Shown piece after piece: positions 4,508-54,962 of a DNA stretch of 64,000 nt. The stretch is taken from positions 1,568,001-1,632,000 of the forward strand of contig CAWFQK010000004.1 of the NCBI GenBank assembly GCA_963817955.1. The letters run 5' to 3'. The translations under genes and the position numbers were made by a program. Origin of the DNA: an uncultured Gemmatimonadaceae bacterium. Its GTDB lineage: Bacteria > Gemmatimonadota > Gemmatimonadetes > Gemmatimonadales > Gemmatimonadaceae. The notes beneath the pieces were generated by a model. That model was not told where the DNA came from and did no database searches. It was given only the letters and a program-made list of their open reading frames with translations. Numbering within the stretch: the first letter of the stretch is position 1; every line of letters starts with the position of its first letter.

Positions 4508-5030
4508 GGGGGACACGGGACACGGGACACGGGACACGAGACAGGGGACACGAGACAGGGGACACTCACAACGCACAACTCACAACTGGAAACTCGAAAC
4601 TCGCCGACCGGTGGGCCGACGGCTACGGAGCAGCCAGCGACATCCAGCCGGTCACCACCCGGAGTCCAATCCGATCTCCCATGTCCTTCGTTCAGGATGA
4701 CAGGCCTTCGCGCAGGACGACAGGCATCGCGGGTGATCAGAGGTGAGTTGTCAGTTGTCAGTTGTCAGTTGTCAGTTGTCAGTATACGGGTCCTGTGCAC
4801 CAGGGCGCCTGGCTCGCAGGCCACAATCGCCGGTCGGCGAGGTTCGGGTATCCAGTTGTGAGTCATGAGTTGTGAGTTGTAAAAACGCACCACGCATCAC
4901 TCACAACTCACAACTCGAACCTGGCCGCCCGCTACGGAGCAGCCAGCGACATCCCGCCAGAATAGAGCCCGGAGCCCAATCCCCGCTGCACCGGCCGGCG
5001 CGAGTGGCTTGCGAGCCAGGGCCACCCGCG
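4508..5030. repeat. Composite intergenic repeat locus (copy A of dispersed family, plus inverted and partial cores)
   Basis: (GGGACAC/GAGACAG)n heptamers, CACAACT heptamers, core CTCGCCGACCGGTGGGCCGAC..TACGGAGCAGCCAGCGACATCCAGCC; inverted core CCGGTCGGCGAGGTTCG at ~4830; (AGTTGTC)n and (AGTTGTG)n arrays; second partial core at ~4900-5010. Confidence 0.9.
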
Positions 5031-5244
5031 CGACTACCCTGCACGATTGATGCGACTCCCTCCTCATTCCTCATAGTTCTTCCGCTGCGCGGAGTGACGG
5101 GCCTCTGTCCGGACTGCCGCTGCATCATCGGCAACGCTATCAATGACCTGCTCGGCCTGATGGTCCGGGATGACAGCGTGCACACCCCTTCAGAGATGCG
5201 TGGTCACCTCGCGCCCTACTTGTCCTCGCGTGCGGCCAATTCGT

Positions 5245-5562
5245 TCACGCACGCCTGACGCAGCGGCCCAGTTCGTTCTCGACGATACGCTCGATCGTCG
5301 AATCGTCCACCGCATCGTACTCGTGGCGGAGCACGTTGCCCAAACCGCGAATGCCGCGCCACGAGACATGGGGCTGACGCTCCTCGATCATTGGGCCGAG
5401 CTTCTTCGCGGCTTCGCTGATCCGTTCGAGGCACCGCTCGACCGCATCGCGCGTCTTGTCGTCGAACTCTGCGCCAGGCTTCATGCACTTCAGGTGGGCG
5501 CGCACCCGATCGATGTTGGTGACGACGTCCTGTAGCCGTTGGCGAGGCACGTCAGAAGGCAT
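5245..5562 (-). CDS. HepT-like (DUF86, HEPN) ribonuclease toxin, probable -1 frameshift near C-terminus
   Basis: DAVERCLERISEA, WRGIRGLGNVLRHEYDAVD; helix-like continuation GPLRQACVNELAAREDK lies in another frame ending at 5216. Confidence 0.85.
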   Translation of the reverse strand: MPSDVPRQRLQDVVTNIDRVRAHLKCMKPGAEFDDKTRDAVERCLERISEAAKKLGPMIEERQPHVSWRGIRGLGNVLRHEYDAVDDSTIERIVENELGRCVRRA

Positions 5563-5851
5563 ACACCGCTTGCGCCTCTGCGCTCGGACGCACATGAGGA
5601 CGGAGGCGGTCGCGTCGGGCGACGTCGACGTCCTGCCCCACGATCTGTTCGAGGTCAGCCGCTATTCCCGCGTACGCGAAGAAGTCGTCGGCTACACCCG
5701 GCGTGAGATCGACGAACAGGTCCACATCGCTGTCGGCTCGGTGCTCCGAACGCACGACCGAACCGAACACCGCGACGTGGACAACGCCGCGCTCACGAAG
5801 TTCGACTTCGTGCGCGCGGAGCTTCGCGAGGATGTTCGTGAGGAGCGACAT
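5552..5851 (-). CDS. MNT (minimal nucleotidyltransferase) antitoxin, MntA-like
   Basis: VFGSVVRSEHRADSDVDLFV (GS-x10-DxD), 99 aa, overlaps the start of the HEPN gene. Confidence 0.9.
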   Translation of the reverse strand: MSLLTNILAKLRAHEVELRERGVVHVAVFGSVVRSEHRADSDVDLFVDLTPGVADDFFAYAGIAADLEQIVGQDVDVARRDRLRPHVRPSAEAQAVYAF

Positions 5852-5892
5852 ACGAAAAACCTACTCCCGAGGTGGCTGGCCTACAACACGTC

Positions 5893-6102
5893 CGCGGCGA
5901 CGCACGTCAAGAAAGTCGACAATACCACGGCATTGATCTGGAAACCCTGTCTCGTCGTCGAACAACATTTCCGCAAACTGAACGCCTCGCACTTCTGTAT
6001 CGACGGGTACAATGGCGTCTTGTTTCACGACGGTCTGTGCACGGTGAACCCGACCCGAGAACGGATCGCCCTCTGACGCCGGGTACTCTGGACAAGATCT
6101 CT
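5893..6102 (+). pseudogene. IS256-family transposase C-terminal remnant with degenerate right end
   Basis: KKVDNTTALIWKPCLVVEQHFRKLNA...GVLFHDG resembles the C-terminus of IS256-type transposases; followed by GACAAGATCTC end-like motif; no N-terminus. Confidence 0.6.
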
Positions 6103-6129
6103 AAGCTCGACCTTGGCCATTTCGGCGGC

Positions 6130-6516
6130 TCAGAATTCGTAGCCTTGATCGAGCCAGTAGTGCCAATCATCGATCGCTCGGCGCGTCTTCGTACCCACAT
6201 CGTGTGCGCCACGGACTTCCAGTTGAGCCAGCGGGACGGCGAGCGGACGGTCGAGCCAGCAAATCTGGACGAACATCTCGTGCTCGCACTCCTGTTCCGG
6301 CGCCATGCTGCTGACGAGGACGCGATCGCCGGGGTTGAGTGGCGAAATGGCACGGGCGGCGCGGCACCGGGCCGTAAACGGAAACCGCAGGGTGTTTTCA
6401 AGGTAGCAGTACCACCCCATAGCCTGTTCTTGCGGGCCGTAGGCATCGACGATGATTTCGTCAAGAATGCGGCGCTCCGACGCAGCGTTCCGTTTTCGAG
6501 GAGGTGGCTTGGCCAT
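6130..6516 (-). CDS. CcbP-like calcium-binding family protein
   Basis: EIIVDAYGPQEQAMGWYCYLE..L.FPF.A, AVPLAQL, AIDDWHYW pattern. Confidence 0.75.
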   Translation of the reverse strand: MAKPPPRKRNAASERRILDEIIVDAYGPQEQAMGWYCYLENTLRFPFTARCRAARAISPLNPGDRVLVSSMAPEQECEHEMFVQICWLDRPLAVPLAQLEVRGAHDVGTKTRRAIDDWHYWLDQGYEF

Positions 6517-6580
6517 GGACACCTGTGTCGGGGCGCGCGTCCGGTGCCGAAGTCCCAGCGAGCTCCGGGCAGGCTGCTGC

Positions 6581-6840
6581 CAGACTCATGAAGTAACGAA
6601 GCGGGCGATTTCGTAGACTTGCGACATCTCTCGGCCAAGAGCGATGCCTCATGCCTCCGCTACCGACCCGCTTCGTCGCTATCATCGTAGCATTTTCCGG
6701 GCTATTTCGCCAACGGACCTGGCGGTACGCCGAGCCCCTGTTGATCGGGGCGATGCTCGCGCCGGGCATTCGCGCCGTCGCCGGGGTGCTGCGCGTCCTC
6801 GGGCTCGCCGATGAGCGCCACTTCGTCTCGAACACCGCAG
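6581..6840 (+). pseudogene. IS701-like (DDE) transposase N-terminal remnant with putative left end
   Basis: MPPLPTRFVAIIVAFSGLFRQRTWRYAEPLLIGAMLAPGIRAVAGVLRVLGLADERHF matches IS701-type N-termini, then similarity is lost; CAGACTCATGAAGTAA upstream as candidate terminus. Confidence 0.6.
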
Positions 6841-6923
6841 CTTTCCCCTCACCGCGCCGGATGCAACACGAGCCAGATGCCGGCGGCATCTGGCTCGTGT
6901 TGCGTTCACTGCGCGAGGCAGCG

Positions 6924-7580
6924 TCACGACCGTGCAGTCACCATGGCATACGCCAGCACCGCCCAGAAATGCGCCGCGCTTCCACCAAGCACGCAGAGAT
7001 GCCACATCGCATGCCCGAACCGAATCCGGTGGTCGTACACATAGAACGCGACGCCACCGGTGTACAGCAATCCACCGGCGAGGACTAGCTCGAGGCCAGG
7101 ACGCGGAACGTGCTGCACCATCGGCACCACCGCGATGACGACCAACCATCCCATCGCGACGTACAGCACCGTTGACAGATGTGGCATTCGCACGCCGTAG
7201 ACGGCCTTGAACAACACGCCGGTGGCAGCGAGCACCCAGATCACGCCGAACATGCTCCACCCCCACCTGCCGCGCATCGGGCCGAGGAGAAACGGCGTGT
7301 ATGTGCCGGCGATCAGTAGGTAAATGGCCGCGTGGTCGCATCGCCGCATCACCGCCTTCACCCGTTCGCCGGGGAGCGCGTGATACAGCGTGGATGTCGA
7401 GTAGAGCAGGATCAGAGAGATCCCATAAATAACGGCGGCCACGACGAGCCTTGCATCGTGTCGCGCCGACGCGGTGAGAATGAGCACCGGGAGCGCGGCA
7501 ACGCTCAACAGCAACCCCATTCCGTGCGTCGCTGCGTTAGCTATCTCCTCAGCTATCGTTTGTCGACGGTCGTGGCTCAT
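6924..7580 (-). CDS. Hemolysin III family (PAQR/TrhA) membrane protein
   Basis: EEIANAATHG, STSTLYH, DHAAIYLLIAGTYTPF, HAMWHLCV. Confidence 0.93.
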   Translation of the reverse strand: MSHDRRQTIAEEIANAATHGMGLLLSVAALPVLILTASARHDARLVVAAVIYGISLILLYSTSTLYHALPGERVKAVMRRCDHAAIYLLIAGTYTPFLLGPMRGRWGWSMFGVIWVLAATGVLFKAVYGVRMPHLSTVLYVAMGWLVVIAVVPMVQHVPRPGLELVLAGGLLYTGGVAFYVYDHRIRFGHAMWHLCVLGGSAAHFWAVLAYAMVTARS

Positions 7581-7612
7581 GCCGCAAGATAGCGTGGTGC
7601 ACGGCCGCGCGC

Positions 7613-7642
7613 GGGACACGAGACACGAGACACGAGACAGGG
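7613..7642 (+). repeat. Short G(G/A)GACAC heptamer array
   Basis: GGGACAC GAGACAC GAGACAC GAGACAG between divergent genes. Confidence 0.75.
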
Positions 7643-7686
7643 GATGCCCGAAATCACCGACACCAATCCCACGAAGGGCCCCAGTT

Positions 7687-8901
7687 ATGAATAGCAGCAT
7701 TCGACGAGCTGTTGCATTTGGCGCCGTGCTTTCGCTCGCCGCGTGTGCGCATCAGCCCGCCGTTACGCTGGCGGCAACGGTGCCCGCGATGGCGTCCGCG
7801 CCAGGGCCTGCACCTGAGCGCTGGCTCGGGCTCATCGGCGAGTACGATACACCGGCCGGAATGCGGATCGTGCTCGAGGACGGTGGACATCTGCTGTTTG
7901 CCGACACGACGCGGCACAGCATGCCGCTGACCGAGCGCTCCCGCAATGTGTTCGACATCAGCCGCGACGCTTCAGCGGCGCTGCTCGGCGCACCGTCTGA
8001 CGAACTCCAGTTCGTACGCGATGCGTCGGACCGCGCGACAGAGGCCGTTGCAGACGGCGTGCGATTGCTCCGGCGCACCATCGAACCACTACCGGGGACG
8101 AACCAGCTCCGCATCGCACCGCTGCGCCCGGTGGAGGAATTGCGTGCCGAAGCGATCGCCGCATCACCGCCGCAGGAGCCGGGGACATTCCGGCCGTCGG
8201 ATCTCGTCGAGCTCACGCAACTCGACTCGACGATCAAGCTCGAGATCCGCTACGCAACCACCAACAACTTCCTCGGCACCCGCTTCTACGATCAGGCGCG
8301 CGCCTTCATGCAGCGTCCGGCGGCTGACGCCGTGGTGCGCGCCAATCAGTGGCTCCGGCCGCTCGGCTACGGCTTACTCGTGCACGATGCGTATCGCCCC
8401 TGGTACGTGACGAAGATGTTCTGGGACGCGACGCCGCCGGAGAAACGCTGGCTCGTCGCCAATCCCGCGCAGGGATCGCGGCACAATCGCGGTGCGGCCG
8501 TCGACCTCACGCTCTACGCGCTCGCGACGGGTCAGCCCGCCGAGATGCCAAGCACATACGACGAGAGCACTGACCGCGCCTACGCGGACTATCCGGGCGG
8601 CACATCGCTACAGCGCTGGCATCGCGCGCTGCTGCGGCGCGCGATGGAAGCGCAGGGGTTCACCGTGAACCCCACCGAATGGTGGCACTTCGATTACCGT
8701 GACTGGCGGAACTATCGTATTGGCAACGTGCCGTTCGAGGGGGTGCGAGACATGGGCGGGGGACACGGGACGCGAGAAACTCACAACGTACAACTCACAA
8801 CTGGCAACTCGAACCTCGCCGACCGGTGGGTCGACCGGTACGGAGCAGCCAGCGACACCCAGCCGGCTCACAGAGATCCTTCGCTTGGCTCAGGAGGATA
8901 G
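7687..8901 (+). CDS. D-alanyl-D-alanine dipeptidase (M15D, VanX/DdpX-like) lipoprotein; ORF reads into repeat copy B
   Basis: Lipobox LAAC; IRYATTNNF, DAYRPW, SRHNRGAAVDLT, EWWHFDY. Confidence 0.9.
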   Translation: MNSSIRRAVAFGAVLSLAACAHQPAVTLAATVPAMASAPGPAPERWLGLIGEYDTPAGMRIVLEDGGHLLFADTTRHSMPLTERSRNVFDISRDASAALLGAPSDELQFVRDASDRATEAVADGVRLLRRTIEPLPGTNQLRIAPLRPVEELRAEAIAASPPQEPGTFRPSDLVELTQLDSTIKLEIRYATTNNFLGTRFYDQARAFMQRPAADAVVRANQWLRPLGYGLLVHDAYRPWYVTKMFWDATPPEKRWLVANPAQGSRHNRGAAVDLTLYALATGQPAEMPSTYDESTDRAYADYPGGTSLQRWHRALLRRAMEAQGFTVNPTEWWHFDYRDWRNYRIGNVPFEGVRDMGGGHGTRETHNVQLTTGNSNLADRWVDRYGAASDTQPAHRDPSLGSGG

Positions 8902-8962
8902 GCATCGCGGGTACTGTGATCAGTTGTGAGTTGTGAGTTGTGAGTTGTGAGTTGTAAAAACG
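8754..8962 (+). repeat. Dispersed repeat copy B with distal inverted (AGTTGTG)n arm
   Basis: GGGACAC, CACAACT, CGAACCTCGCCGACCGGTGGGTCGACCGGTACGGAGCAGCCAGCGACACCCAGCC; ends in AGTTGTG array + TAAAAACG as in copy A. Confidence 0.9.
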
Positions 8963-9599
8963 GACCCCGGGTGACTGCCCGGCACAATTCTATTTCGCTG
9001 TGAACGTGACGCGACGCAATGTCACCGAACCTTCGCGAGGGTCATTTGGGGCGCCGGATCAATTCCTCCCCTTTCGCTCGGAATTGTCGCATCACGATGC
9101 AGTCTGGCGAGGTGGACGTCTCGGAATGTGGGTGGTTGGTAAGCGGAATGAAGCCACCGCGCCCCGATCCTGGCCCGCCATGGGTGGCCGTTATTCGGCC
9201 GCGGCCAAAGTAACGCTGCCGCGCGCGGTTCTCGAACGTGCCGCGGCCATGATCCGCCATGCCGCGCTATCGATCGGCGTGCCGCGCTATCGATCCGCAT
9301 GCCGCGCGCAGGCCGCAGAACTCCGCAAGATGAAGTCGGCGTACCGCGCGAGCGGCGGCCGTGCCAGTCCAAGTCGGTCGGGTAGGCGCATGGACAACCG
9401 GTGTTGCCGCGCGCGCTGGTCGGATGCCGCCGATTTTTGAGCCGTGCCGCGCTTGGACCCGCACGCACAAACGTCTTCCGCCGGCGCCCCGCGCCGGATG
9501 CGACTACGGCGCGAGTTGCATCCGTCGCGCCGCGATCGGAGGCCAGAAGCCGCGGCGAGAGCACGTTGCGCCGCGCCCGGGAGCCTGACGCCACTGCCG

Positions 9600-9810
9600 G
9601 GCGGCGCAGCGGGGATTGGACTCCGGGCTGGATGTCGCTGGCTACCGATCGCGAGGCGGGGATTGGACTCCGGGCGCTATTCTGGCTGGCTGTCGCTGGC
9701 TGCTCCGTACCGGTCGACCCACCGGTCGGCGAGGTTCGAGTTTCCAGTTGTGCGTTGTGAGTTTCTCGCGTGTCTCGTGTCTAATGTCCCATGTCTCGTG
9801 TCCCGTCCCC
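9600..9810 (-). repeat. Dispersed repeat copy C
   Basis: Reverse complement of the same core and heptamer arm, starting immediately after the permease stop; duplicated GGGGATTGGACTCCGGGC segment. Confidence 0.9.
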
Positions 9811-12210
9811 CTAATCCGCCGCCAGAGTGATCGCCGGATCCACGCTCGCGGCGCGGCGCGCCGGACCGAGGCAGGCGAGGATTGCCACGGCCACGAGCAG
9901 TGCAGCGCTCACGCCAAGTGTCACGGGGTCGAAGGCCGACACACCTACGATCATCCCGTGCATGGCACGCGTCGCGAGGATGGCTCCGGCAATACCGATC
10001 ACGGTGCCCGCCGCGGCGAGCGACAAGCCTTCGCGCACCACCGCCGACACGATCTGGTGCCGCGCCGCACCGAGTGCGATGCGGATACCGATCTCACGCG
10101 TGCGGCGTGACACGCGGTACGCAAAGAGCCCGTACGTGCCGATCGCGGCGAGCAGCAGCGCCGCCATGCCGAACGAGACGAGCAATAACATCTGAAATCT
10201 CGGGGTCTTGAGCTTGCGGCCCATCAGCTCCGGCATCGTATTCACGTTCGATGCTTGGAGATCGGGATCGATCGCGCGTAAACGTGCCCGCACGTCGGAC
10301 ATGACTGTTGCCGGGGGCACCGCGGTCCGAAGCACGAAATAGGTGAAGCCTCGCGGTGCCTGTCGGTTGGACCAATAGATCTGGGGCTGCACACGCTGCC
10401 CGGGAGTGACCGCGGCGATGTCGCGTACCACGCCGACCACTTGCACGCGATACCGGTCCTGGAACAGCGACAATTCCTTGCCAATCGGTGTATCGCCGGG
10501 CCAGAACTGCTTCGCCAACGACTCGTTGACCAGCGCCACGCGTGGTGCACTCAGACGATCCGTCGCCTGCAGCGGCCGGCCCTGCACCAACGGTACGCCA
10601 AGCGTCGCGAAGAAAGACGGACTGACGTCATACCACCACGCGGCTGCACGTACACCCCCGCCGCGCGATTCGAAATGCACTTCGTCTGTCTCGACGCCTC
10701 CGAACAGGGGGCCGCCGGAAGCAGAACCCACGGCACGGACGCCAGGCAGCGCCGCGAGCTCCATCTCAACGCGGTCCCACAGCGCGGCAATCTTCTCTTC
10801 TCCAGCATACTGCTCGGCGGGTGCGAACAGCGAAAAGGTCTGCACATGCTCGCGTTCGAAGCCGGGATTCCACGCCGTGATCGCTGCAAAGGATCGCGTC
10901 AACAGACCCGCGCCGGCCACGAGAACGAGCGCCAACGCGAGCTCACCGATCACGAGCAAGCGACCGAGTACGCTCGATCCCATCGCCATGCCCCGTCCAC
11001 CTTCGCGCAGCGATTCCGCCAAATCCGTGCGTGCCGCACGAAGCGCGGGAGCGAGACCGAAGAGCACGGTCGTCACGACCGCCAATGCCAGCGCGAAGAA
11101 CAGCACCCGTGCATCGATCGTCACGTCCGAAATGCGCGGAATGCTCGGTGGTGCGAGTGCCTTGAACGCGGCAGTTCCCCACACCGCGATCAGCACGCCA
11201 AACGACGTCCCGGCCAGTGATAGCACGAAGCTTTCGACGAGCAGCGCACGCACGATGCGCCAACGACTTGCGCCGAGCGCCGAGCGCAGCGCCATTTCTC
11301 GCGCCCGCACGCCTGCGCGGGCGAGCAACAGATTGGCGACATTGGCACACCCGATGAGCAGGATGAGTGAGACCGCGCCGAGGAAGAACAGCAAGATTGG
11401 CTTGGCGCTCCCCACCACCAGGTCCTGCAACGATTCCATCTGGAGATCCCATCCCGCGGTCTTCGTAAAGTGCTCACGCCGCAGCTGTCCGGCGATGCCG
11501 GTGAGCTCCGCCTGAGCCGTGGCGAGCGACACGCCAGGACGTAGCCTTGCGTAGGCAACGAAACCGCGCCATTCGCGGTGCTCCTCGTCCCGCGGATTGA
11601 TGTGCAGTGGCCGCCAGAGCTGGATGTCGTCATACTTCGGAAGCTGGAATCCGGCGGGGAGAACGCCGATGATCGTGACGGGCTTGCCGTCGAGAACGAT
11701 CACGCGACCGACGACGTCGCGCGCGCTGCCGAAGCGGGCTTGCCACATCTCGTACGACAGTAGTACGACGTCGCTCTCTCGCCCTAGCATGTCCGACTCG
11801 CCGATCAGGCGGCCGAGCTCGGGGCGGACACCAAGCGCGCGAAACAGCCCAGGAGTGGCGATGCCGCCATTCACAGCTTGTGCCCCCTCGACCGTCGCGA
11901 GATGATACGGCCATGACCGGCCTATCCCGATGGCCTCGATGGTGTGGGAGCGCGCGGCGAGATCTTCGACATTCGGCGGCGAGATGCTGCACCAATCTTT
12001 CGTTGCTGCCGGATGCTCCTCACAGATCGTGATCAGCCGCTCGGCGTTCGGAAAGGCCAGCGGCCGGAGCACGATGCCGTTGACGACGCCATAGATGGCC
12101 GTCGTGACCCCGATGCCGAGGGCCAGCGTGAGAACGGCAGTGATGCTGAACGCGGGCTGCGCCAGCAAACTGCGCAGAGCGTATCGAACATCCGCGAGAA
12201 GATTGTGCAT
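9811..12210 (-). CDS. ABC transporter permease, duplicated MacB/FtsX (ADOP-type)
   Basis: DVRYALRSL..PAFSITAVLTLALGIG, LLIGCANVANLLLAR, RTREIGIRIALGA, PARRAASVDP. Confidence 0.93.
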   Translation of the reverse strand: MHNLLADVRYALRSLLAQPAFSITAVLTLALGIGVTTAIYGVVNGIVLRPLAFPNAERLITICEEHPAATKDWCSISPPNVEDLAARSHTIEAIGIGRSWPYHLATVEGAQAVNGGIATPGLFRALGVRPELGRLIGESDMLGRESDVVLLSYEMWQARFGSARDVVGRVIVLDGKPVTIIGVLPAGFQLPKYDDIQLWRPLHINPRDEEHREWRGFVAYARLRPGVSLATAQAELTGIAGQLRREHFTKTAGWDLQMESLQDLVVGSAKPILLFFLGAVSLILLIGCANVANLLLARAGVRAREMALRSALGASRWRIVRALLVESFVLSLAGTSFGVLIAVWGTAAFKALAPPSIPRISDVTIDARVLFFALALAVVTTVLFGLAPALRAARTDLAESLREGGRGMAMGSSVLGRLLVIGELALALVLVAGAGLLTRSFAAITAWNPGFEREHVQTFSLFAPAEQYAGEEKIAALWDRVEMELAALPGVRAVGSASGGPLFGGVETDEVHFESRGGGVRAAAWWYDVSPSFFATLGVPLVQGRPLQATDRLSAPRVALVNESLAKQFWPGDTPIGKELSLFQDRYRVQVVGVVRDIAAVTPGQRVQPQIYWSNRQAPRGFTYFVLRTAVPPATVMSDVRARLRAIDPDLQASNVNTMPELMGRKLKTPRFQMLLLVSFGMAALLLAAIGTYGLFAYRVSRRTREIGIRIALGAARHQIVSAVVREGLSLAAAGTVIGIAGAILATRAMHGMIVGVSAFDPVTLGVSAALLVAVAILACLGPARRAASVDPAITLAAD

Positions 12211-12447
12211 GACCCAATGTGCTCCAGCGCGCGGAGGGAAGTCAGCGCGCAATCAGGGGAACGACCACTAGCTTTCATTGTTGGATATGGCAAATTCCAG
12301 ACGCGTTCATTCCGCGGACACCGCGCGCATCGCGTTGCTATGTCGACACTTGCGCCTTCCAAGGTTCCGGTTGCTGAATGGCGGGTGTTCGATACTGGGA
12401 CTTCGTGTCCGATATCGGTCTCTTTCAAATCACTGGAAGGCCGCGTC

Positions 12448-12837
12448 ATGACCAACACTCCTGCCATTATTTTCCGCCGCTTCGCCGTCGCCCTGCTCGT
12501 GACCGGCGCGTTCGCCTGCGGCCATTTCCATCCGGGGGCCGACACTCCGGCGCGGGCTCGCATTTTTTTCTCGAACGAATCGCTCGATGAGGCTGCCGTC
12601 TACGCTGTGCGCTCGGGCGGGGATGGGATCCGGATCGGCACGGTGTTCCCTGGCCATACCGATACGCTCGTCGTGCCGGCGGACATCGCGAACGCAGGCG
12701 CGACGGTGAACCTCGTGGCGCGGATCCTGGCACATTCCTTCGCCCCTCAGAGTGGCCCGATCGTGATCCACGCGGGCGACGAGTTCGTCGTCCGGCTGCC
12801 TGCAGACCAACGGGTGCTCGTCGTACTGCCGCCCTGA
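12448..12837 (+). CDS. Hypothetical lipoprotein
   Basis: Signal with AFAC lipobox; beta-rich mature region. Confidence 0.7.
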   Translation: MTNTPAIIFRRFAVALLVTGAFACGHFHPGADTPARARIFFSNESLDEAAVYAVRSGGDGIRIGTVFPGHTDTLVVPADIANAGATVNLVARILAHSFAPQSGPIVIHAGDEFVVRLPADQRVLVVLPP

Positions 12838-12918
12838 TCGGTCCTCATCACTGTCCACGCGCCGCCGATCGGCACGCACGGTGCAGGTTGTAGGATGGGA
12901 GATTACGGGAGGAACACG

Positions 12919-13119
12919 ATGAGCGCGGATCGCGACGATAAACTCAACCGCAAGCGCCGCAGTACGGATAAGGCCGCAGGCACAGGCAAGCGCGCGAAGA
13001 AGAAGGCCAAAGCACCGAACCCGCCACGCACGACGACCGGCCGATGGCTCACGACGCCAAAGTTCGGTTCGGCCGGGAGTGGCGGCCTGGAGTTAGAGCC
13101 CGGTCCCGAGCGCGACTGA
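12919..13119 (+). CDS. Small basic hypothetical protein
   Basis: GGAGG RBS; 66 aa with Lys/Arg-rich N-terminus and C-terminal NPP..TTG...PKFGSAGSGG.E.EPGPE. Confidence 0.55.
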   Translation: MSADRDDKLNRKRRSTDKAAGTGKRAKKKAKAPNPPRTTTGRWLTTPKFGSAGSGGLELEPGPERD

Positions 13120-14094
13120 GGCAGCCTCGAAGGCCGCAACGGCAACGTCGTGAATCGGCACGGCGATGCCGTGCTCGCACGCCATGCGGACGACGGTGCC
13201 GGCGAGCAGGTCGAGTTCCGTCTGGCCTCCGCGCTCGAGATCGAGGAGGAAGCTCGGTTTCACGTGCGGCTGCACGGCCAGCAGATTGCGCCACACGCCC
13301 TCGCGATCGTCGTCGGTGAGCGGCTTACCGACCGCGCGACTCACGGCGATGATCTCGTCGAGCGCGCCGCCGAGCAGCGCGCGTCCGCGCGCGCTCTGCT
13401 GGAGGGGACCGATCGGCGCACGCGCGAGTCCGCAGCCGATCGTGATCGGCACGATGAACGCAAATTTGCGCCACAAGTCCCGCGCGATGTCGTCGCTCAG
13501 CGTTGCGTTCGTTCCGCATACTCGCAACGCGTTCACGAACGGGCGAAGGACTTCGTTCGTGCGGCCGGCAAAATCACCGACGATGACGACGTCGGCGGGA
13601 CTCTTGCGCTCGACGACGCCGGGTGCAGTCCGCACGACACTGATCGCCGCCAATCCACCGGCAATGCGTGCCGGTAACACGCCGAGTGCTTCCAATCGCT
13701 CTGCGACGTCAGCGCCATTGAGCAATGGAACGATCGTCGCACCGTGCTGCGCAGCACCGGCCAATGCGTCGCCGACGTCGGGCAGCGAATAGCCCTTCAC
13801 GGCGACGATCACGAGGTCGCGGTCATTGAGGCGCGCCGGGTCGTCCGTCGCCGTCGGATGCGTGATGACAGAGCGGTCGGAGGTTCGCAACTCGAGGCCG
13901 CGCGTACGTACGACATCGAGATGCGCTCCGCGCGTAAGCAGCACCACGTCGTGTCCTCCGGCGGCAAGGAGCGCCGCGTAGTAGCTGCCAATGGCGCCGC
14001 CGCCGACGACGCCGAGCGGCAAACGCCGCTGGCCCTGCAACTGCTGAAGCAGTTCCTCCGGCCTAGGGCCGGTCGCAAAAACAGAGATAGACAT
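13093..14094 (-). CDS. panE: 2-dehydropantoate 2-reductase (ketopantoate reductase)
   Basis: GVVGGGAIGSYY, VAVKGY, LLNG, LWRKF, KPSFLLDLERG..TELD. Confidence 0.85.
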   Translation of the reverse strand: MSISVFATGPRPEELLQQLQGQRRLPLGVVGGGAIGSYYAALLAAGGHDVVLLTRGAHLDVVRTRGLELRTSDRSVITHPTATDDPARLNDRDLVIVAVKGYSLPDVGDALAGAAQHGATIVPLLNGADVAERLEALGVLPARIAGGLAAISVVRTAPGVVERKSPADVVIVGDFAGRTNEVLRPFVNALRVCGTNATLSDDIARDLWRKFAFIVPITIGCGLARAPIGPLQQSARGRALLGGALDEIIAVSRAVGKPLTDDDREGVWRNLLAVQPHVKPSFLLDLERGGQTELDLLAGTVVRMACEHGIAVPIHDVAVAAFEAASVALGTGL

Positions 14095-14130
14095 GGGGAG
14101 GGTGAGGCCGGAGGGCAAAGACGAGCAACG

Positions 14131-14180
14131 AGTACCGAGTACCTACTACCGACTACTGAGCACTGAGCACTGAGCACTGA
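14131..14180. repeat. Heptamer tandem array (CTGAGCA and variants)
   Basis: AGTACCG AGTACCT ACTACCG ACTACTG AGCACTG AGCACTG AGCACTG immediately 3' of the mmsA stop. Confidence 0.75.
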
Positions 14181-15641
14181 TTACGACATCCAGTTCACTC
14201 CGGCCTCGCGATTCCACTTCGTGGTCATCTTCTTGGCTTGTGTCCAGAACTCGATGGAGCCGTGCCCTGTAATATCGCCGACACCGAACTTGGACTCGTT
14301 CCAGCCGCCGAACGAGAACGGCTCGCGCGGCACCGGCACGCCAACGTTGACGCCAACCATGCCCGCGCCCGCATGCTCCATCACGTATCGCGCGACCGCT
14401 CCACTCTCGGTGAATACCGACGCGGCGTTGCCGTACGGCGATGCATTCTCAATCTCGAGGGCCCCGGATACGTCTGGCGCGCGAACGATGACGAGCACCG
14501 GCCCGAAAACTTCCTCCTGGGCGATGCGCATGGCGGGCGTGACATGGTCGATGATCGTCGGTCCGAGATAGTACCCGTTTTCCAGGCCCGGGACACGCGC
14601 GCCACGGCCATCGACGAGCACCTTGGCACCGGCCGCCTCTGCTTCCGCGATGTACCGCACGATGCGCTCCTTCGCCGCGGCCGAGATGACGGGCCCGATG
14701 TCCGTTCCCGGCACCATCGCCCGCGCGACCTCGCACATTCGCTCGATGATGTGATCGGTGTTCGACACGGCGACCATGACGGCCGCCGCCATGCACCGCT
14801 GGCCAGCGCAGCCAGACATGGACGCCACGATGTTCGTCGCCGCCATCTCGCGGTCGGCATCGGGCATGACGATGAGATGATTCTTGGCGCCACCGAGCGC
14901 GAGACATCGCTTGAGGTTCGACGTCGCGCGTCTGTACACGACTTTCGCGATCTTCGTCGAGCCGACGAAGCTGACGGCGGCAATGCCCGGGTGATCGCAG
15001 ATCGCTTCCACGGCCTCACGTCCGCCGTGGACCACCTGAAATACGCCGGGGGGCAATCCCGCTTCCCGCAGCAGGTCGGCAATGCGGCCGGCGCTGATCG
15101 GCACGATCTCCGACGGCTTCAGAATCATGCAGTTGCCCAACGCGATCGCGTTTGGAATCGTCCAGTTGGGCACCATGTTCGGGAAATTGAACGGTGCGAT
15201 CGACGCAACGACGCCGAGGGGAAAACGCTCCACGCGACACTCGACGCCGCGACTTACCTCGAGCACCTCGCCGGACGCGATCTGCGGCAGCGAACAGGCG
15301 AACTCCGTCAACTCGGCGGACTTCAGGACCTCGGCGCGTGCCTCGTTGGCGATCTTTCCGTTTTCCTCGGTGACCAGCGCGGCCAGTTCGTCGATGTGCT
15401 GCTCGAGGAGCGCTTTGTACCGATAGAACACCTGAACGCGTTCCTTGATCGGCGTCGTTGCCCAGCCGGGGAACGCGGCGCGCGCGGCCTGAACGGCAGC
15501 GTCCACCTCTCCCGCCTGTGACATGGGTACGCGGGAAATGACTTCACCGCTACTCGGATTGTAAACGTCCAGCGACGGCCGATCCGTCGCGGCGAAGTTG
15601 CCCGCGACGTAATTCTGAAGTTCCGCGTATTTCATGCGCAA
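14181..15641 (-). CDS. mmsA: CoA-acylating methylmalonate-semialdehyde dehydrogenase
   Basis: PFNFP, ILKPSE, SFVGST, LGGAKNH, GCAGQRCMA, EEVFGP, GVNVGVPVP. Confidence 0.9.
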   Translation of the reverse strand: MRMKYAELQNYVAGNFAATDRPSLDVYNPSSGEVISRVPMSQAGEVDAAVQAARAAFPGWATTPIKERVQVFYRYKALLEQHIDELAALVTEENGKIANEARAEVLKSAELTEFACSLPQIASGEVLEVSRGVECRVERFPLGVVASIAPFNFPNMVPNWTIPNAIALGNCMILKPSEIVPISAGRIADLLREAGLPPGVFQVVHGGREAVEAICDHPGIAAVSFVGSTKIAKVVYRRATSNLKRCLALGGAKNHLIVMPDADREMAATNIVASMSGCAGQRCMAAAVMVAVSNTDHIIERMCEVARAMVPGTDIGPVISAAAKERIVRYIAEAEAAGAKVLVDGRGARVPGLENGYYLGPTIIDHVTPAMRIAQEEVFGPVLVIVRAPDVSGALEIENASPYGNAASVFTESGAVARYVMEHAGAGMVGVNVGVPVPREPFSFGGWNESKFGVGDITGHGSIEFWTQAKKMTTKWNREAGVNWMS

Positions 15642-15691
15642 TCATGCGGAAGCCTCAGGTGTTCTGCAAGTATCCGATCGCGCTCAGTGGT

Positions 15692-16093: not shown

Positions 16094-16256
16094 TTGATCC
16101 CAGGGTTCAGGAATTCTTCGGCGTCACGCGCTCCTGCAGCACCATCCAAACCGTAGTCTGGCGCCGTTTGGGCGCGAAGTGTGCCGTTGCATCGGGTCAT
16201 GTCGACTATTGATACCCCGCAGACCAGCGACTTCCCTTCTTTATGGTGAGGGCAAC

Positions 16257-16718: not shown

Positions 16719-16726
16719 GTTGTATG

Positions 16727-16935: not shown

Positions 16936-16943
16936 TTACCGCG

Positions 16944-17327: not shown

Positions 17328-17451
17328 GCCAAACACCATAGGCTATAGCGTAAATCCGCGAAGCGGGTCGTCCCCCCCGGCCATGTCAGAGAAAAAGCGA
17401 CAGGCAATGCTCACATTTCCGTGAACCGTTGACCGTTACATGGTGCGGCGT

Positions 17452-42874: not shown

Positions 42875-44452
42875 CTATGTGTCTCGTGTCTCGTGTCTCG
42901 TGTCTCGTGTCTCGTGTCCCGAGTCTGGTGTCCCGAGTCTCGTTGCTGCACCGATCGCAAGCACGGCGCTGACGACGGCGCCCGCGAGCGCTGCAGCACG
43001 GAGCCCGCCCGTAAACGCGCCCTGGGCCTGCAGCAGCAACTCTGTTCCTTGCGCGCTGGGTAGATGGCGCGCCGCCTCGCGAGCGCCGCCAATGCTCTCT
43101 CTCGCCAGTCGGGCAATGTCCCCCGGCAGCCCCGACGGAAGCACGGCGAGACGGTGATTGTAAATCGCCGTGCTGATGCTTCCAAACACGGCAACACCCA
43201 ACGCAATACCAAAGTCTCCGCTCGCCTCGGACAGCGCGGCCGCCGATCCGGCCTTCTCGGGCGGCGCGGATCCGACGACGAGATCCTGACTGAACACCAC
43301 CATTGGACCAATGCCAAAAAAAACGAGGATGGCGGCAGCCACGAGCAGCCTCACCGCTCCAGTGCCGGTCACCTGGGCAAGGAGCAGGTAGCCGGCAGCC
43401 GAGATCCAGAGGCCAACGCTCACGATCCACCGCGGATGCAGCACGCGCGTGACGAATGGTGCGATGATGCAGCCCACCACCATCGCGATCGGCGCCGGCA
43501 GCATCGCCCAGCCAGCCTTCAGGGGCGACAGCCCCTCGACGATCTGGAGGTGCTCGCTCAACAGCAACAGGATACCACTCTGCGCCGCCAAGCCGAACAT
43601 CAGAATGAGCAGCGCGGCACTGAACGCCGGAACGCGAAAGAGCCGCAGGTCGATCAGAGGACTGGCAAGTACTCGTTGCCGTTTCACGAACACCACGCCG
43701 CATGCGGCGGCGAAGACGACGGCGGGAAAGGTCACGACCGTCACGCCGTCTCTCGCGAGTGACTTCACCGCGTAGACGAACGGCAGGATGGCGGCCAGTG
43801 ACAGGGCCACGCTCGCCGCGTCGAGCGGTGCGGTGGTTGCATCGCGAAACTCGGGGAGGAAGAACGGTCCGGTGGCAAGCAGCAACAGCATGACCGGCAC
43901 GCCCATCAGAAAGAGTGCGCCCCACCGGAAATGTTCGAGGAGCACCCCGCCGACGATCGGGCCGATGGTGGCTCCAACCATGAAACAGGCCGTCCACAGC
44001 GCGATGGCCGCCGCTCGTTCGCCGGCATCGCGGAACATGTTGCTGATCAGTGCGAGTGTGGACGGCATCAACGTCGCGCCGGCCAGACCCATGAGGGCAC
44101 GTGCGGCCACCAGCATCGCGACGCTCGTCGAGTATGCTGCGCAGATCGACGCGAGGCCGAATGCCGCCGCGCCAAGGAGCAGCAGCTTCCGCCGCCCAAT
44201 GCGATCGCCGAGCGTGCCCATCGTCACGAGGAACCCGGCAGTGACGAATCCGTATATGTCGGTGATCCACAGTTGCTCGGTGCTCGTGGCGCCCAGATCG
44301 GCGCTCAGACGCGGCAGCGCCAGATAGAGAACGCTCAGGTCGAGGGCAAGCAGGATGGTCGGCAGGCTCAAGACCGCCAAGCCGATCCAGGCTCGCTTGC
44401 CGGCCCTCTCGGGCACTGCCGAGCCTATCGCGTCATTTGCTGGATGATGCAA
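42875..44452 (-). CDS. MFS drug:H+ antiporter (DHA2, 14-TMS)
   Basis: LDLSVL..ALP, WITDIY, GDRIGRRKLL, GPIVGG..W; C-terminus encoded by heptamer repeat. Confidence 0.9.
   Translation of the reverse strand: MHHPANDAIGSAVPERAGKRAWIGLAVLSLPTILLALDLSVLYLALPRLSADLGATSTEQLWITDIYGFVTAGFLVTMGTLGDRIGRRKLLLLGAAAFGLASICAAYSTSVAMLVAARALMGLAGATLMPSTLALISNMFRDAGERAAAIALWTACFMVGATIGPIVGGVLLEHFRWGALFLMGVPVMLLLLATGPFFLPEFRDATTAPLDAASVALSLAAILPFVYAVKSLARDGVTVVTFPAVVFAAACGVVFVKRQRVLASPLIDLRLFRVPAFSAALLILMFGLAAQSGILLLLSEHLQIVEGLSPLKAGWAMLPAPIAMVVGCIIAPFVTRVLHPRWIVSVGLWISAAGYLLLAQVTGTGAVRLLVAAAILVFFGIGPMVVFSQDLVVGSAPPEKAGSAAALSEASGDFGIALGVAVFGSISTAIYNHRLAVLPSGLPGDIARLARESIGGAREAARHLPSAQGTELLLQAQGAFTGGLRAAALAGAVVSAVLAIGAATRLGTPDSGHETRDTRHETRDT
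42878..42942 (-). repeat. GAGACAC heptamer array inside the MFS 3' end
   Basis: (GTGTCTC)n on the + strand, translated GHETRDTRHETRDT. Confidence 0.85.
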
Positions 44453-48567: not shown

Positions 48568-48770
48568 ACGGCGCGAACGGCTGACGGCGCTGACTCCCTG
48601 ACGGCGCTGACTCCCTAACTGCGCTGACTCCCTAACTGCGCTGACTCCCTAACTGCGCTGACTCCCTAACGGCGGCTTAGCACAAGGCGGACTTACGGCG
48701 GACTTACGACGGACTTACGGCGGACTTACGGCGGACTTACGGCGGACTTACGGCGGACTTACGGCGGCGG
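48568..48770 (+). repeat. Left arm of cassette: 13-bp terminal IR, 5x17-mer, 7x11-mer
   Basis: ACGGCGCGAACGG; (CT[GA]AC[GT]GCGCTGACTCC)x5 at 48581-48665; (GGCGGACTTAC)x7 at 48686-48762. Confidence 0.95.
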
Positions 48771-48834
48771 GCGATTGGGAGGGATTGAAGGGTTATGATT
48801 GCGCGTTCTCGTCCGAAATGCTCCAGCGTTGCGC

Positions 48835-49200
48835 ATGACGCTACACCGCAACCTCGCCGTCCTCGATGCAGCGGATCTCGTAGCTGGTGAGATCATGCAG
48901 CTGATCGCGTCCACTCCCCGGCTGCTGCACGTCGAGCAGCTCCGAGATTCCGCGCAATCCATCGGGGCGAATATCTCGGAAGGTTTCGGTCGCGGGCCCG
49001 GCGCAGACCGGGCGCGGTTCCTCCGAACCTCGCGTGCATCCGCTGAAGAGACCATCCGACACCTCCGCGGGAACCTCAACGCCAGCAGGATCCCGGAGAC
49101 AACGTACTGGCGAATGCACCATCGATTGGTAACGATCTCACGAATGCTCGACTCGCTGCTCCGCCACCCCGAATCCAAGGCTCGCAGCGATCGCTTCTAG
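48835..49200 (+). CDS. Four-helix-bundle protein (23S rRNA intervening-sequence protein / Avd-like family)
   Basis: HRNLAV...EQLRDSAQSIGANISEGFGR...RARFLRTSRASAEET...ISRMLDSL matches family motif QLRRAA.SI..NIAEG..R...FL.IARGS..E. Confidence 0.88.
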   Translation: MTLHRNLAVLDAADLVAGEIMQLIASTPRLLHVEQLRDSAQSIGANISEGFGRGPGADRARFLRTSRASAEETIRHLRGNLNASRIPETTYWRMHHRLVTISRMLDSLLRHPESKARSDRF

Positions 49201-49203
49201 AGA

Positions 49204-49386
49204 GTCAGCCGCCGATCGCCGCCTCCAGCCGCCGTCAGCCGCCGTCAGCCGCCGTCAGCCGCCGTCAGCCGCCGTCAGCCGCCGTCAGGGAGTCAGCGTA
49301 GTCAGGGAGTCAGCGTAGTCAGGGAGTTGGCGCAGTTAGGGAGTCAGCGCCGTCAGGGAGTCAGCGCAGTTAGCCGTTCGCGCCGT
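49204..49386 (-). repeat. Right arm of cassette: 10-mer array, 5x inverted 17-mer, 13-bp terminal IR
   Basis: (GCCGTCAGCC)x5+ at 49231-49288; GGAGTCAGCG..GT[CT]AG x5 at 49289-49373; CCGTTCGCGCCGT at 49374-49386. Confidence 0.95.
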
Positions 49387-52998: not shown

Positions 52999-53930
52999 GA
53001 TGCCGCCGGAAGGTACGTCGCGAACGCTGTCGTCTCGAACCGATCGAGCGTGGGTGTGATGATCAGACCATCCACGGACGAACGCTCGAGCAGTGCGAGT
53101 CCCTCGACGGGGCCGAGCACGAACGCGGCGGTAGAGAGGGCATCGGCCAGCGTCGCCTGCGGCGCAACGACGGTGACGCTCGCCGCGCCGGTCGCCGGCC
53201 TGCCGCACCGCGGATCGATGATGTGGTGCTCGCCGTCGCGCGGGCTCCGCCGCTCGTAGTCCCCCGACGTACACACGGCAGCATCACTCACCCAGAGCGT
53301 GCAGATCAGCGTGTCAACGGCGCGCGGATGACGCACGCCAACGGCCCAGGGGTCGCCTGTCGCGTTGTGCCCTGCCAGGTACAGATCGCCGCCCGCATCG
53401 ATGGCAAAGTTCTCGAGTCCCCATGACTTGCGCAGTTCAAGCGCGGCTATGTCGATGGCAAGACCCTTGGCGACCGCGCCGAAATCGAGCATTAGCGGCC
53501 GCGTGAGCGTGATCGTCTGCGCGTCCTCGTCGAGCACCACGTCGCGGTAGCTCACGGCGTCGGACGCGTTCCCGGCAGTCCGGACGGCGTTCCCGGTCCG
53601 ATACTCGCGATCGAACCCGCGCGCTTCCATCCTGTTGCCAACGGTCGGATCGAACGCGCCGAAGCTTGTCGCGGCGACGGCGATCGCCGCGCGCGCGATC
53701 TCGAACAGGATCGTGCTGACCGGCTGTGGCGAGCCTGGCCGGCGGCAGAGTGCGGTCAGCTCACTATTTGGATCAAAGCGCGAGCAGCAGCGCTCCAATT
53801 CCGCGAACCACCGCACGGCCGCCGCTGCGGCGTGCGCCCGGTCACGCGACTCGTCGGTGTCGGAGCCCGCGATCCGGATACTGACCACGGTGCTCATCGC
53901 CGAGCAACTGTGGACGAAGACGTCGCTCAC
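52995..53930 (-). CDS. apbE: FAD:protein FMN transferase
   Basis: AMST, SRFDPNSEL, GAFDPTVG, DFGAVAKG, DAGGD, TSGDYER, HIIDPR, ADALST. Confidence 0.9.
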   Translation of the reverse strand: MSDVFVHSCSAMSTVVSIRIAGSDTDESRDRAHAAAAAVRWFAELERCCSRFDPNSELTALCRRPGSPQPVSTILFEIARAAIAVAATSFGAFDPTVGNRMEARGFDREYRTGNAVRTAGNASDAVSYRDVVLDEDAQTITLTRPLMLDFGAVAKGLAIDIAALELRKSWGLENFAIDAGGDLYLAGHNATGDPWAVGVRHPRAVDTLICTLWVSDAAVCTSGDYERRSPRDGEHHIIDPRCGRPATGAASVTVVAPQATLADALSTAAFVLGPVEGLALLERSSVDGLIITPTLDRFETTAFATYLPAAS

Positions 53931-54709
53931 TTTGCCTTCGAGAGTGCTTCGACCACGGCGCCATAGAACGCATTCGTGCTCTGCGTTGCCCCTGAGATGT
54001 AGTCGACCTCGGCGCTCTGGCGGTCGACCACCTGCTTGGGAAGCGCCGCGATCCACGAACATGAATAGCGCGTCAGACATTGCGTGATCGTCGCGGAAAC
54101 GATGCGCCCATTCTTGATCTCGACGGCCGCCTGAATATCGCCGTGGCGCGAGCTGCCCCAGCCCGCGTACGTGCCGTCCTTCAGGCCGTGATCGGTCGCC
54201 GCCTGCGACGCGGCGGAGTCTGTGGGCACACCGACCGGGCTCGGGGTGACCGAGGCGGTGGCGGCGGGAGCTGGAGCGGCAGCTGGGGCCGCGGAGGGCG
54301 TGCTCGTCGGCGTTGGTGTCGTCTTCGCGGTGCGCTTTGCAGTGCCACTATGCGCCAATGCACGCGCGTCGCTCTGTGCGCTGTCGGGGCCTGTCGCCGC
54401 CTTCCGGTCCGACGGCTTGGCTGGCCGCACCGTATCCACCTGTATCGGCTGTAGTGGCTGGCGCGCAATCTCGGATTCCGCGACCGGCTCATGCCGGCGA
54501 CGCGTTGCGGGCCCATCGTCAAACTGACTCGCCGCCGCCCGCGTACGGAGGAAACCAGCGCTGTAGATCGCCAGCACCGCCGCCGAGCCGAACGTGACCA
54601 GGTTGTTGGTCGAGCGCTTGCCCGTTGCGCCGACGCGCAGGCTCGCCGCCACAGGATTGGCGGCGGGCGGGCGGTTCGAGTCAGGCGACGTGTCGTCTGC
54701 GGGTGTCAT
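53927..54709 (-). CDS. FMN-binding domain protein with N-terminal membrane anchor and Pro/Ala linker
   Basis: KDGTYAG...G.I...V.IKNGRI; VDYISGATQST flavinylation motif. Confidence 0.88.
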   Translation of the reverse strand: MTPADDTSPDSNRPPAANPVAASLRVGATGKRSTNNLVTFGSAAVLAIYSAGFLRTRAAASQFDDGPATRRRHEPVAESEIARQPLQPIQVDTVRPAKPSDRKAATGPDSAQSDARALAHSGTAKRTAKTTPTPTSTPSAAPAAAPAPAATASVTPSPVGVPTDSAASQAATDHGLKDGTYAGWGSSRHGDIQAAVEIKNGRIVSATITQCLTRYSCSWIAALPKQVVDRQSAEVDYISGATQSTNAFYGAVVEALSKAK

Positions 54710-54802
54710 GGGGGGCAGGGGCGGGGGGGCGTGCGACGTCTCCCTCTCATTAGACGCAGAGCTGGGGTGGGACGTTGGTGGACGGAGCGAGGTCTACTTC
54801 AT

Positions 54803-54962
54803 GGATTGGGCTCCGGGTGTTGACCGGCTGGATGTCGCTGGCTGCTCCGTACCGGTCGGCCCACCGGTCGGCGAGGTTCGAGTTTCCAGTTGTGAGTTGT
54901 GCGTTGTGAGTGTCCCGTGTCCCGTGTCCCGTGTCCCGTGTCCCGTGTCTTGTGTCTTGTGT
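54803..54962 (-). repeat. Dispersed repeat copy G
   Basis: Reverse-complement core and GGGACAC arm directly after the serine hydrolase stop. Confidence 0.92.

Follow-up and report, generated by a model that had tools for sequence, protein, structure and literature searches.

What is the short repeat that stands behind one stop codon after another, always pointing the way of the gene, in a 64,000-nt stretch of DNA (the window) from an uncultured soil Gemmatimonadaceae bacterium? The first-pass annotation had described it as a dispersed, uncharacterised family of at least seven copies, and had taken its strict orientation as a sign of transcription-coupled insertion or of a function at the RNA level. 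We followed the repeat through the genome that holds the window (4.53 Mb, 9 contigs, 94% complete). It proved to be one module chain, H-T-D, of a non-coding, modular (mosaic) repeat family, which is multi-copy, intergenic and devoid of a conserved open reading frame (ORF). We favour, with moderate confidence at most, the view that H-T-D is part of a genome-private, selfish or neutral intergenic family, whose orientation follows from its architecture and its position.

Within the window, the 37-nt core GGAAACTCGAACCTCGCCGACCGGTGGGCCGACCGGT was found at six sites (4588+, 8803+, 9709-, 16822+, 17500- and 54851-) with 0-3 mismatches, while 100 shuffles of the window gave no match. Reading these loci bore out the layout that had been proposed: a run of GGGACAC/GAGACAC heptamers, then three CACAACN-like (CACAACT-like) heptamers, then the core, the heptamer number differing among copies. 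Five copies start shortly past a stop codon, as had been claimed (Table 1). At the copy noted at 8754+ no stop precedes the element, and the Peptidase_M15 ORF 7726-8901 (D-Ala-D-Ala dipeptidase) does run on through it: about 48 codons lie within H-T-D, which supplies the C-terminus and the stop. The seventh copy, 33329-, listed as a core variant, consists of another module, G, and an inverted arm, t, and contains no core variant. A core fragment announced at ~58780-58820 came down to a mere 17-nt identity to the inner arm t (CCGGTCGGCGAGGTTCG) at 58805-58821, which BLAST does not join to the family at E <= 1e-5. These 17 nt are the 3' arm of a small local hairpin (58770-58825), lying in the convergent gap behind a Peptidase_S46 gene. 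The window also holds further pieces of the family, namely modules E, F, G and t behind the first copy, a second T-D after them, and a doubled D in the third copy.

Searching the genome by BLAST with a 110-nt core gave 175 matches. Ninety-eight of them cover at least 85 nt, which confirms that a dispersed family exists, and 42 are confined to the arm, the first ~48 nt. Coverage of a 306-nt complete copy changes in steps, from ~147 over the arm to 95-112 over D, 20-30 over E and 42-46 over G, after which the inverted arm appears again. We distinguish H, the microsatellite of G-rich heptamers, (GGGACAC/GAGACAC)n; T, the 47-nt arm, in which three CACAACN heptamers are joined to GGAAACTCGAACCTCGCCGACCGG; D, a 60-nt core ending in CCCGGAGTCCAATCC; and E, F (heptamers) and G, further internal modules of the mosaic. 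Genome-wide, 133 T, 118 H, 84 D, 40 G, 37 F and 12 E modules were counted at 185 loci, in 39 distinct chains. The frequent chains are solo H (62), TD (22) and HTD (15), and complete HTDEFGt(h) copies also occur. Twenty adjacent T..t pairs have their heptamer ends outward, and 14 of these enclose a body of 175-218 nt (T-D-E-F-G-t foldbacks); some foldback copies bear H/h wings in addition to the 47-nt T/t arms. Another 21 adjacent pairs, t-T, have the heptamer ends toward each other. Overall, 77 of the 133 arms have a partner within 1.5 kb and 56 are partnerless. One complete copy folds into a single long hairpin (-206.5 kcal/mol, z = -10.6).

Pairwise identity among copies is ~85%. The inverted pair 16737-16902(+) and 17456-17628(-), 0.55 kb apart, is 92.7% identical; no concerted evolution of neighbours was found, as 18 neighbour pairs had a mean identity of 0.841 versus 0.847 for all pairs, and 6625 of 10000 random sets reached the neighbours' value. 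The ORFs between the inverted H-T-D pairs of the window (9022-9594 and 16944-17339) have no Pfam match. A reading as integron attC sites was dropped: the copies are scattered over all contigs among housekeeping genes, and an inspection for RYYYAAC/GTTRRRY boxes, by eye only, revealed none. In the 32 kb of contig C1:447000-480000, ~12 mosaic units alternate with single genes or small groups of genes (AAA_16 ATPase, MazE-like and PF05635 genes).

Orientation relative to genes was analysed using gene calls from a home-made codon log-odds model, the second version of which takes the best-scoring start codon. Convergent gaps (469 in the genome) hold 46 of the 84 D modules, tandem gaps (2033) hold 35, and divergent gaps (512) hold 3. 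The family is about threefold enriched between convergent genes and nearly absent between divergent ones. Such an order, convergent above tandem above divergent, is the usual bias for intergenic repeats tolerated away from promoters. In a convergent gap, either orientation places the H side beside a co-oriented gene, so that 'sense' is automatic there, and since the window copies lie mainly in convergent gaps, the rule that the element is always in the sense of its gene holds within the window. Genome-wide it breaks down, as the tandem-gap copies are 20 in sense and 15 in antisense, close to the random orientation that the annotation itself had named as speaking against its proposal. We conclude that the apparent sense rule is mostly a by-product of position. 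An orientation set by architecture and position gives no evidence for transcription-coupled insertion or for an RNA function of the core.

One aspect of the position is not explained by a purely selfish model. Among the 109 outward 5' edges of H, 46 lie within 14 nt past a co-oriented stop, versus 14.4 expected from random placement in the same gaps; for the other locus ends facing a stop, the figure is 11 of 172, versus 21.8 expected. The array overlaps the stop codon in 7 of the 46 (five at -2, two at -1). The stops beside H are TGA in 21 cases, TAG in 18 and TAA in 7, the genome shares being 0.605, 0.237 and 0.159. This nearness of H to stops, often with overlap of TGA or TAG, could mean a function and counts against the reading we favour. 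Period 7 predominates among perfect arrays of at least 3 copies (147, versus 2-32 for periods 5, 6 and 8-12, and 101 for period 4). The units are 407 GGGACAC and 275 GAGACAC, and 275 of 694 (40%) lack a G3 run. Arrays of 2, 3, 4 and 5 units number 76, 39, 36 and 20, with no peak at four, and only 34 have at least 4 consecutive G3 tracts.

G-rich heptamer arrays have been described in Xanthomonas, (GGGAATC)n, and Nostoc, (GGGGAYT)n (Rehm et al. 2015 PLoS One, PMC4692102). According to the parts of that paper used here, the 5' end of the G-rich strand adjoins the nearest ORF, within 50 nt past the stop on the coding strand; convergent (inverted) array pairs are frequent in Xanthomonas only, where the majority of arrays are transcribed; and the function of the arrays is unknown. 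Our arrays resemble those of PMC4692102, as far as those parts go, in being intergenic tandem G-rich heptamers with the 5' edge at the ORF end, scarce between divergent genes and paired convergently. They differ by their unit, GGGACAC/GAGACAC, 40% of it without G3, and by the lack of a four-unit preference. They also differ in being joined to a 47-nt arm and a 60-nt core that recur ~100 times, to which the same parts of the paper offer nothing comparable.

The structure of the core was examined on its own. The first-pass annotation had suggested a structured RNA in the 3' untranslated region (UTR), and that T-D encodes such a motif or a structured small RNA is, in our judgement, very improbable. 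Rfam gave no match in the whole window at gathering score, and, at E <= 1, only a chance-level mir-674 match (E = 0.032) in 4450-5100; ARAGORN found no tRNA- or tmRNA-like piece. T-D and H-T-D fold like shuffles (z = -0.64 in sense, +0.60 in antisense), T-D being able to pair only with a t arm next to it or with another arm 175 nt or more away. The consensus fold of an 83-copy alignment is weak (-3.8 kcal/mol, sense strand), with 1 compensatory cell in total and no covariation, a test whose power is low as the copies are ~85% alike. The CCGGT-GGGCCG-ACCGG hairpin that had been pointed out is present; it consists of GCCGACCGGT duplicated in tandem on either side of a palindromic hexamer, and shows no covariation. 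The points that would suit an RNA motif are the strong conservation of the central stretch TACGGAGCAGCCAGCGACATCC and the variable 7 nt that sit between two conserved CCGG boxes. The occurrence of both orientations relative to genes, and the lack of a homologue in the relatives searched, are further points against it.

A broader possibility is that the element is a functional 3'-end module, acting on the transcript or on the terminating ribosome as a terminator without U-tail, a block to 3' exonucleases or a brake on termination. A REP (repetitive extragenic palindromic) sequence within 15 nt of a stop codon reportedly affects translation termination, a result ascribed to Liang, Rudd and Deutscher in 2015. 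Such a module would give a reason for the threefold excess of H edges close behind stops and for the seven overlaps, and would suit the very stable hairpins of complete copies and the enrichment in convergent gaps. In another Gemmatimonadaceae genome, G130, a GC-rich hairpin between G-rich and C-rich wings occupies a whole convergent gap, and the transcription of most Xanthomonas arrays (PMC4692102, in the parts used) points the same way. However, 61 of the 84 D modules lack a partner arm and H-T-D alone folds like shuffles. The units without G3 and the small number of arrays with four consecutive G3 tracts do not fit either, nor do the 15 antisense copies among the 35 in tandem gaps, and a D module private to one genome is unexpected for a needed function. 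A terminator and promoter consensus scan of 4300-19300 found 3 terminator-like sites, versus 9.2 expected, none of them at a T-D copy, and at one locus an intrinsic terminator lies ahead of the element. We rate this possibility as unlikely, and place it just after the gene-carrying cassette discussed below.

We then consider how the family might move. Bacterial interspersed mosaic elements (BIMEs) of E. coli are built from ~35-nt REP palindromes, are extragenic at operon 3' ends, serve as targets of insertion sequences (IS) and go with a REP-associated tyrosine transposase (RAYT). Their features recall the present family in the mosaic of short modules in alternating orientation, the extragenic place at gene 3' ends and the use as IS target; they differ in that here there is no ~35-nt REP palindrome and no RAYT, and the modules are longer and include microsatellite arrays. 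That a RAYT (Y1) or another single-strand (HUH) transposase mobilises the family is the least probable of the explanations considered, despite the mosaic build, the extragenic position and the asymmetric one-armed units. The search for a RAYT that had been advised returned no PF01797 match in the 94%-complete genome, whereas a control search was positive in 6 of 14 known genomes. The genome contains no TnpB TNB domain and no DDE_3, and its single Y2_Tnp gene (contig C3:121095) has no likeness to the family.

Two other known types of repeat come close. BOX elements of Streptococcus pneumoniae, boxA-boxB(n)-boxC, are also modular, with a variable tandem unit, ~100 intergenic hairpin-forming copies and no known transposase; their sequence is unrelated, and whereas they vary in the number of an inner 45-nt box, the tandem unit that varies here is 7 nt long and forms a microsatellite at the outer edge. 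MITEs (miniature inverted-repeat transposable elements) and foldbacks, such as the Correia elements of Neisseria, share the size (0.3-0.45 kb), the absence of coding sequence, the long terminal inverted arms and the many intergenic copies; here, however, no target-site duplication was seen, no parent IS has the same arms, and most units are one-armed. The REP/BIME- or MITE-like character first proposed is upheld as regards copy number, modularity, inverted arms and the absence of a match in the collections searched, and fails as regards a RAYT or a parent IS. The family is BIME/BOX/foldback-like and genome-private, with heptamer-microsatellite edges.

None of the T..t pairs encloses a transposase of its own, and the DDE_Tnp_1, IS110-type and Y2 genes of the genome are not bounded by T arms. 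An IS481-like gene does lie within two T..t pairs, as part of a four-copy element with its own, different ends (Table 1). All four copies sit at the same F-G junction (GTTGTCAG, then AGTATAC), which is clean in the empty mosaic copies. With its own ends and a fixed site, the IS481-like element takes the mosaic as a target and did not give rise to it. Likewise, the end of a 1.77-kb repeat that includes a DDE_Tnp_1 gene is 7 nt away from an H array. Other mobile DNA therefore uses the mosaic as a landing pad.

A four-helix-bundle gene flanked by the family's arms was another item worth checking, and here the result was positive. Five genes of the genome belong to PF05635, the family of the 23S rRNA intervening-sequence protein, an Avd-like four-helix bundle, and two of them, ~97% identical by an estimate from their alignment, lie between t and T arms, with T-D starting 2 nt past their TAA. 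They account for the only long loops (487 and 639 nt) among the 21 t-T pairs, the other 19 loops measuring 6-27 nt. A third gene (48850-49152, in the window) lies between 110-nt inverted arms, 92% complementary, in a second type of hairpin cassette (48568-49386), unrelated to t/T, whose arms are tandem 17-mers enclosing 10/11-mer arrays; a fourth lies between ~100-nt unique arms. Read by eye, 4 of the 5 genes are thus placed between long inverted arms of differing sequence. This extends to the genus, where each of 31 genomes has 3-12 PF05635 matches, more than 200 in total. Thirty loci were listed, 3 of them too near a contig end. In the 27 testable ones, from this genome and 26 congeners, inverted arms of 25 nt or longer lie within 450 nt at 19, versus 0 of 49 displaced controls, and a direct repeat of 25 nt or more lies at 1.

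These data suggest another explanation, in which a gene-carrying hairpin cassette would be the complete form, and the t-T hairpins and single arms (T-D, G-t) would be gene-less derivatives, kept or spread by the PF05635 protein with or without a partner enzyme. The position of the two genes, their loops and the genus-wide arms speak for it. Some members of PF05635, the Avd-like family, are encoded within hairpin-bounded 23S rRNA intervening sequences, according to the parts of PMC10053308 used here. Those sequences are alike in having a four-helix-bundle gene in the loop of a long hairpin; they differ in that the loci here lie between protein-coding genes (the ORFs beside the two t/T-armed loci code for proteins, e.g. 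a MazE-like one) and not in a 23S rRNA helix, and in that the t/T arm type is also a dispersed family of ~130 arms. In a search of titles and abstracts, no paper on PF05635 in dispersed hairpin cassettes was found. On the other side, the 21-nt repeats (ACAAACCGGKCTGATAGGTGAGC) of the IS481-like left end are found again ahead of the two t/T-borne genes, once at one and seven times at the other. As the leader starts with this repeat, the gene-bearing segment may be a further insert at a preferred site and not the parent. The gene is found between t and T at only 2 loci, the left flanks of these two differ (G-t versus d-t), PF05635 has no known catalytic activity, and the one-armed H-T-D form, superfluous to a hairpin model, makes up most of the family. 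We therefore hold this explanation to be unlikely, though the foremost of the alternatives.

A stronger version, which we find rather doubtful, would make the t/T hairpin with its PF05635 gene the founding 'autonomous' form; the PF05635 genes of Gemmatimonadaceae would in general sit in hairpin cassettes, with arms able to multiply into genome-private families like T-D. Avd recognises structured nucleic acid in diversity-generating retroelements. By analogy, and with the same doubt, the PF05635 protein would recognise its own hairpin and promote its copying or retention. The only RVT_1 match of the genome (C4:732178-732693, 425-aa open frame) is hundreds of kb away from the nearest PF05635 gene.

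The distribution of the family was then examined. Module D has no match in 30 congeners and order relatives, where BLAST at E <= 0.001, the most sensitive search used for diverged T-D in congeners, returned 3 weak matches to the heptamer part. An exact-match search of 185,579 species, each represented by one genome, did not recover the best-conserved 22-mer, and exact-pattern scans of metagenome contigs for this 22-mer and for a degenerate arm pattern were negative as well. Three DNA runs from one soil-metagenome study contain at most 0.24 of the sampled words, at a coverage too thin to count for or against, and gave short contigs, none spanning an element. Among the collections searched, this soil Gemmatimonadaceae genome is so far the only one to contain the family. 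A search with the whole element recovered an E-like piece (CCTTCGCTCAGGATGACAGG) and heptamers in 10 of the 30 congeners, and no other part. This E module (reverse complement GTCATCCTGAGCGAAGG; window 4685-4725) occurs single or in tandem behind many H arrays, and is the sole part of the mosaic common to other species of the genus (G001, G002, G007, G009, G011 and G013, with at least 9 matches in G009).

GGGACAC-type arrays are uncommon in Gemmatimonadaceae (3 of 120 other genomes). In three other genera of the family (G093, G107 and G130), 5 of 11 arrays begin 0-14 nt past an ORF of at least 80 codons. Their GGGACAC/GGGAAAC/GGGACGG arrays stand as inverted wings on both sides of a central hairpin peculiar to them. 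The cores between the arrays of G107 recur at several loci and are unlike D (e.g. GGAGAACCCTCGGGATGC...GCATCCCGAGGG).

To return to the selfish or neutral mosaic family, the modules combine as T-D-E-F-G-t foldbacks, some with H wings, as t-T hairpins with G and D at the base, and mostly as one-armed H-T-D. The inverted arms and the microsatellite ends may be the routes of spread and reshuffling, with either recombination or a trans-acting transposase as the agent, and units would survive where harm is least, downstream of genes. H-T-D would stand behind stops 'in sense' in part because H is the outward edge of every unit, and in part because G-rich heptamer arrays start at ORF ends, as they do in Xanthomonas and Nostoc.

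Besides the stop-codon edges, several observations weigh against this account. No partner arm or C-rich wing lies within 450 nt of 61 of the 84 D modules, and many of these 61 stop sharply at CCAATCC, which is not expected from random decay of foldbacks. With copies only ~85% alike, there was no very recent burst. No target-site duplication is readable at the ends of complete copies (25 multi-module loci inspected by eye, edges blurred by degenerate heptamers), and no paralogous empty site was found within the genome. The nearest genome is too distant for a filled-versus-empty comparison: the closest protein match in another genome is 79% identical (relatives of one window protein, all Gemmatimonadaceae/Gemmatimonadota), and gene order around the orthologous gap differs in the two nearest relatives. 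As no T-armed element carries its own transposase either, we infer mobility from copy number, inverted arms and reshuffling. Finally, the gene calls are home-made, and their first version missed the gene beside the 54962- copy.

Other repeats accompany the mosaic. X1, a 700-730-bp non-coding repeat (Table 1), always lies between mosaic arms; its copies vary in how often a 20-nt tandem unit (TGCCGCGCTATCGATCCGCA) is repeated and are also set apart by 1-nt indels, hence no conserved ORF. A terminator-like hairpin with a T-run marks its left edge (minus strand, 8967-8982). The palindromic module GAACCTTCGCGAAGGTTC, or a near variant, occurs upstream of several H arrays, in X1 (~9040-9060), at positions 120-140 of locus L114 and in the flanks of C2:218453, C4:1405997 and C5:32493. 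A degenerate satellite of 1.5-2.2 kb with 21- and 42-nt periodicity is present at L114 (C4:1406000-1408500) and, besides L108 and L109, at no fewer than 10 further loci; none of the five ORFs scanned in the L114 satellite, each 120 aa or longer, has a Pfam match. At C4:765k and C4:1119k, 2.1-2.2-kb bodies of 21-nt-periodic satellite lie between mosaic arms, apparently in opposite orientations. Beside the G-t arm of the window, at 32921-33199, 11-mer arrays (CTGCAGTTCTC) and a ~90-nt unit with tens of BLAST matches in the genome represent a further repeat family.

Table 1. Mosaic elements, solo heptamer arrays and associated repeats. Positions are those of the window unless a contig is named; first-pass starts are given where a copy had one.
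Feature	Position	Strand	First-pass start	Modules and surroundings
Near-complete mosaic element, whole	4510-4876	+	4508+	Starts 34 nt past the stop at 4475 (sequence and ORF ends read); mapped by module BLAST and regular expressions, sequence read
Modules of this element, first part	4510-4712	+		H 4510-4565, T arm 4565-4611, D core 4613-4672, E 4673-4712
Modules of this element, second part	4748-4876	+		F heptamers 4748-4782, G 4781-4824, inverted arm t 4830-4876
Degenerate second T-D	4885-4982	+		Right behind arm t (t-T junction type); 74.5% identical to the query copy
Copy B	8754-8955	+	8754+	Short H, T arm 8780-8826, D cut off after CAGCCGG, E-like piece, then (AGTTGTG)5 at 8924-8951
Copy C	9610-9810	-	9810-	H, T arm 9722-9759 (minus strand), doubled D 9610-9720; H begins 0-1 nt past TAG 9811-9813
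MacB/FtsX permease gene upstream of copy C	9811-12252	-
Copy D	16737-16902	+	16727+	H (9 units), T, D; starts ~18 nt past TGA 16716-16718 of the DUF6789 gene ending at 16718
Copy E	17456-17628	-	17629-	H, T, D; H 3 nt past TGA 17632-17634 of the beta-CASP gene 17632-19014(-)
Other arm type	33204-33330	+	33329-	G 33204-33249, inverted arm t 33253-33299, few heptamer units
Copy G	54803-54963	-	54962-	H with degenerate outer units, T, D; starts ~5 nt past the stop of the 471-aa ORF 54971-56386(-); tandem-sense case
Solo heptamer array	7613-7640	+		GAGACAC type
Solo heptamer array	19031-19094	-		9 units, at the stop of called gene 19086-19784(-)
Solo heptamer array	42879-42943	-		9 units, at the stop of gene 42875-44416(-)
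X1	8940-9640			5 copies in the genome, 84-90% identity (BLAST)
Other X1 copies	C4:198181-198757, C2:333820-334550, C2:811459-812189, C1:329794-330519
IS481-like element	C9:169775-171079, C4:242671-243975, C4:905538-906843, C5:39682-40986			HTH_32, rve, LZ_Tnp_IS481; proteins 97-100% identical

For the genome itself, the ~100 copies create false ORF extensions in annotation, such as 7726-8901, and act as landing pads for insertion sequences. More generally, a tidy sense-orientation rule can come from geometry alone, through convergent gaps, inverted pairs and an outward microsatellite edge, and orientation in tandem gaps is the test that separates geometry from biology. Stop-hugging G-rich heptamer arrays are extended from Xanthomonas and Nostoc to Gemmatimonadaceae, where, here and in G107, they are joined to a recurring core that differs between the two genomes. 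The PF05635 genes in hairpin loops are a concrete candidate for the missing protein partner of such repeats and, if this were true, they would open a first way into the question of how hairpin and heptamer repeats between genes, 'orphans' with no transposase, come to spread.

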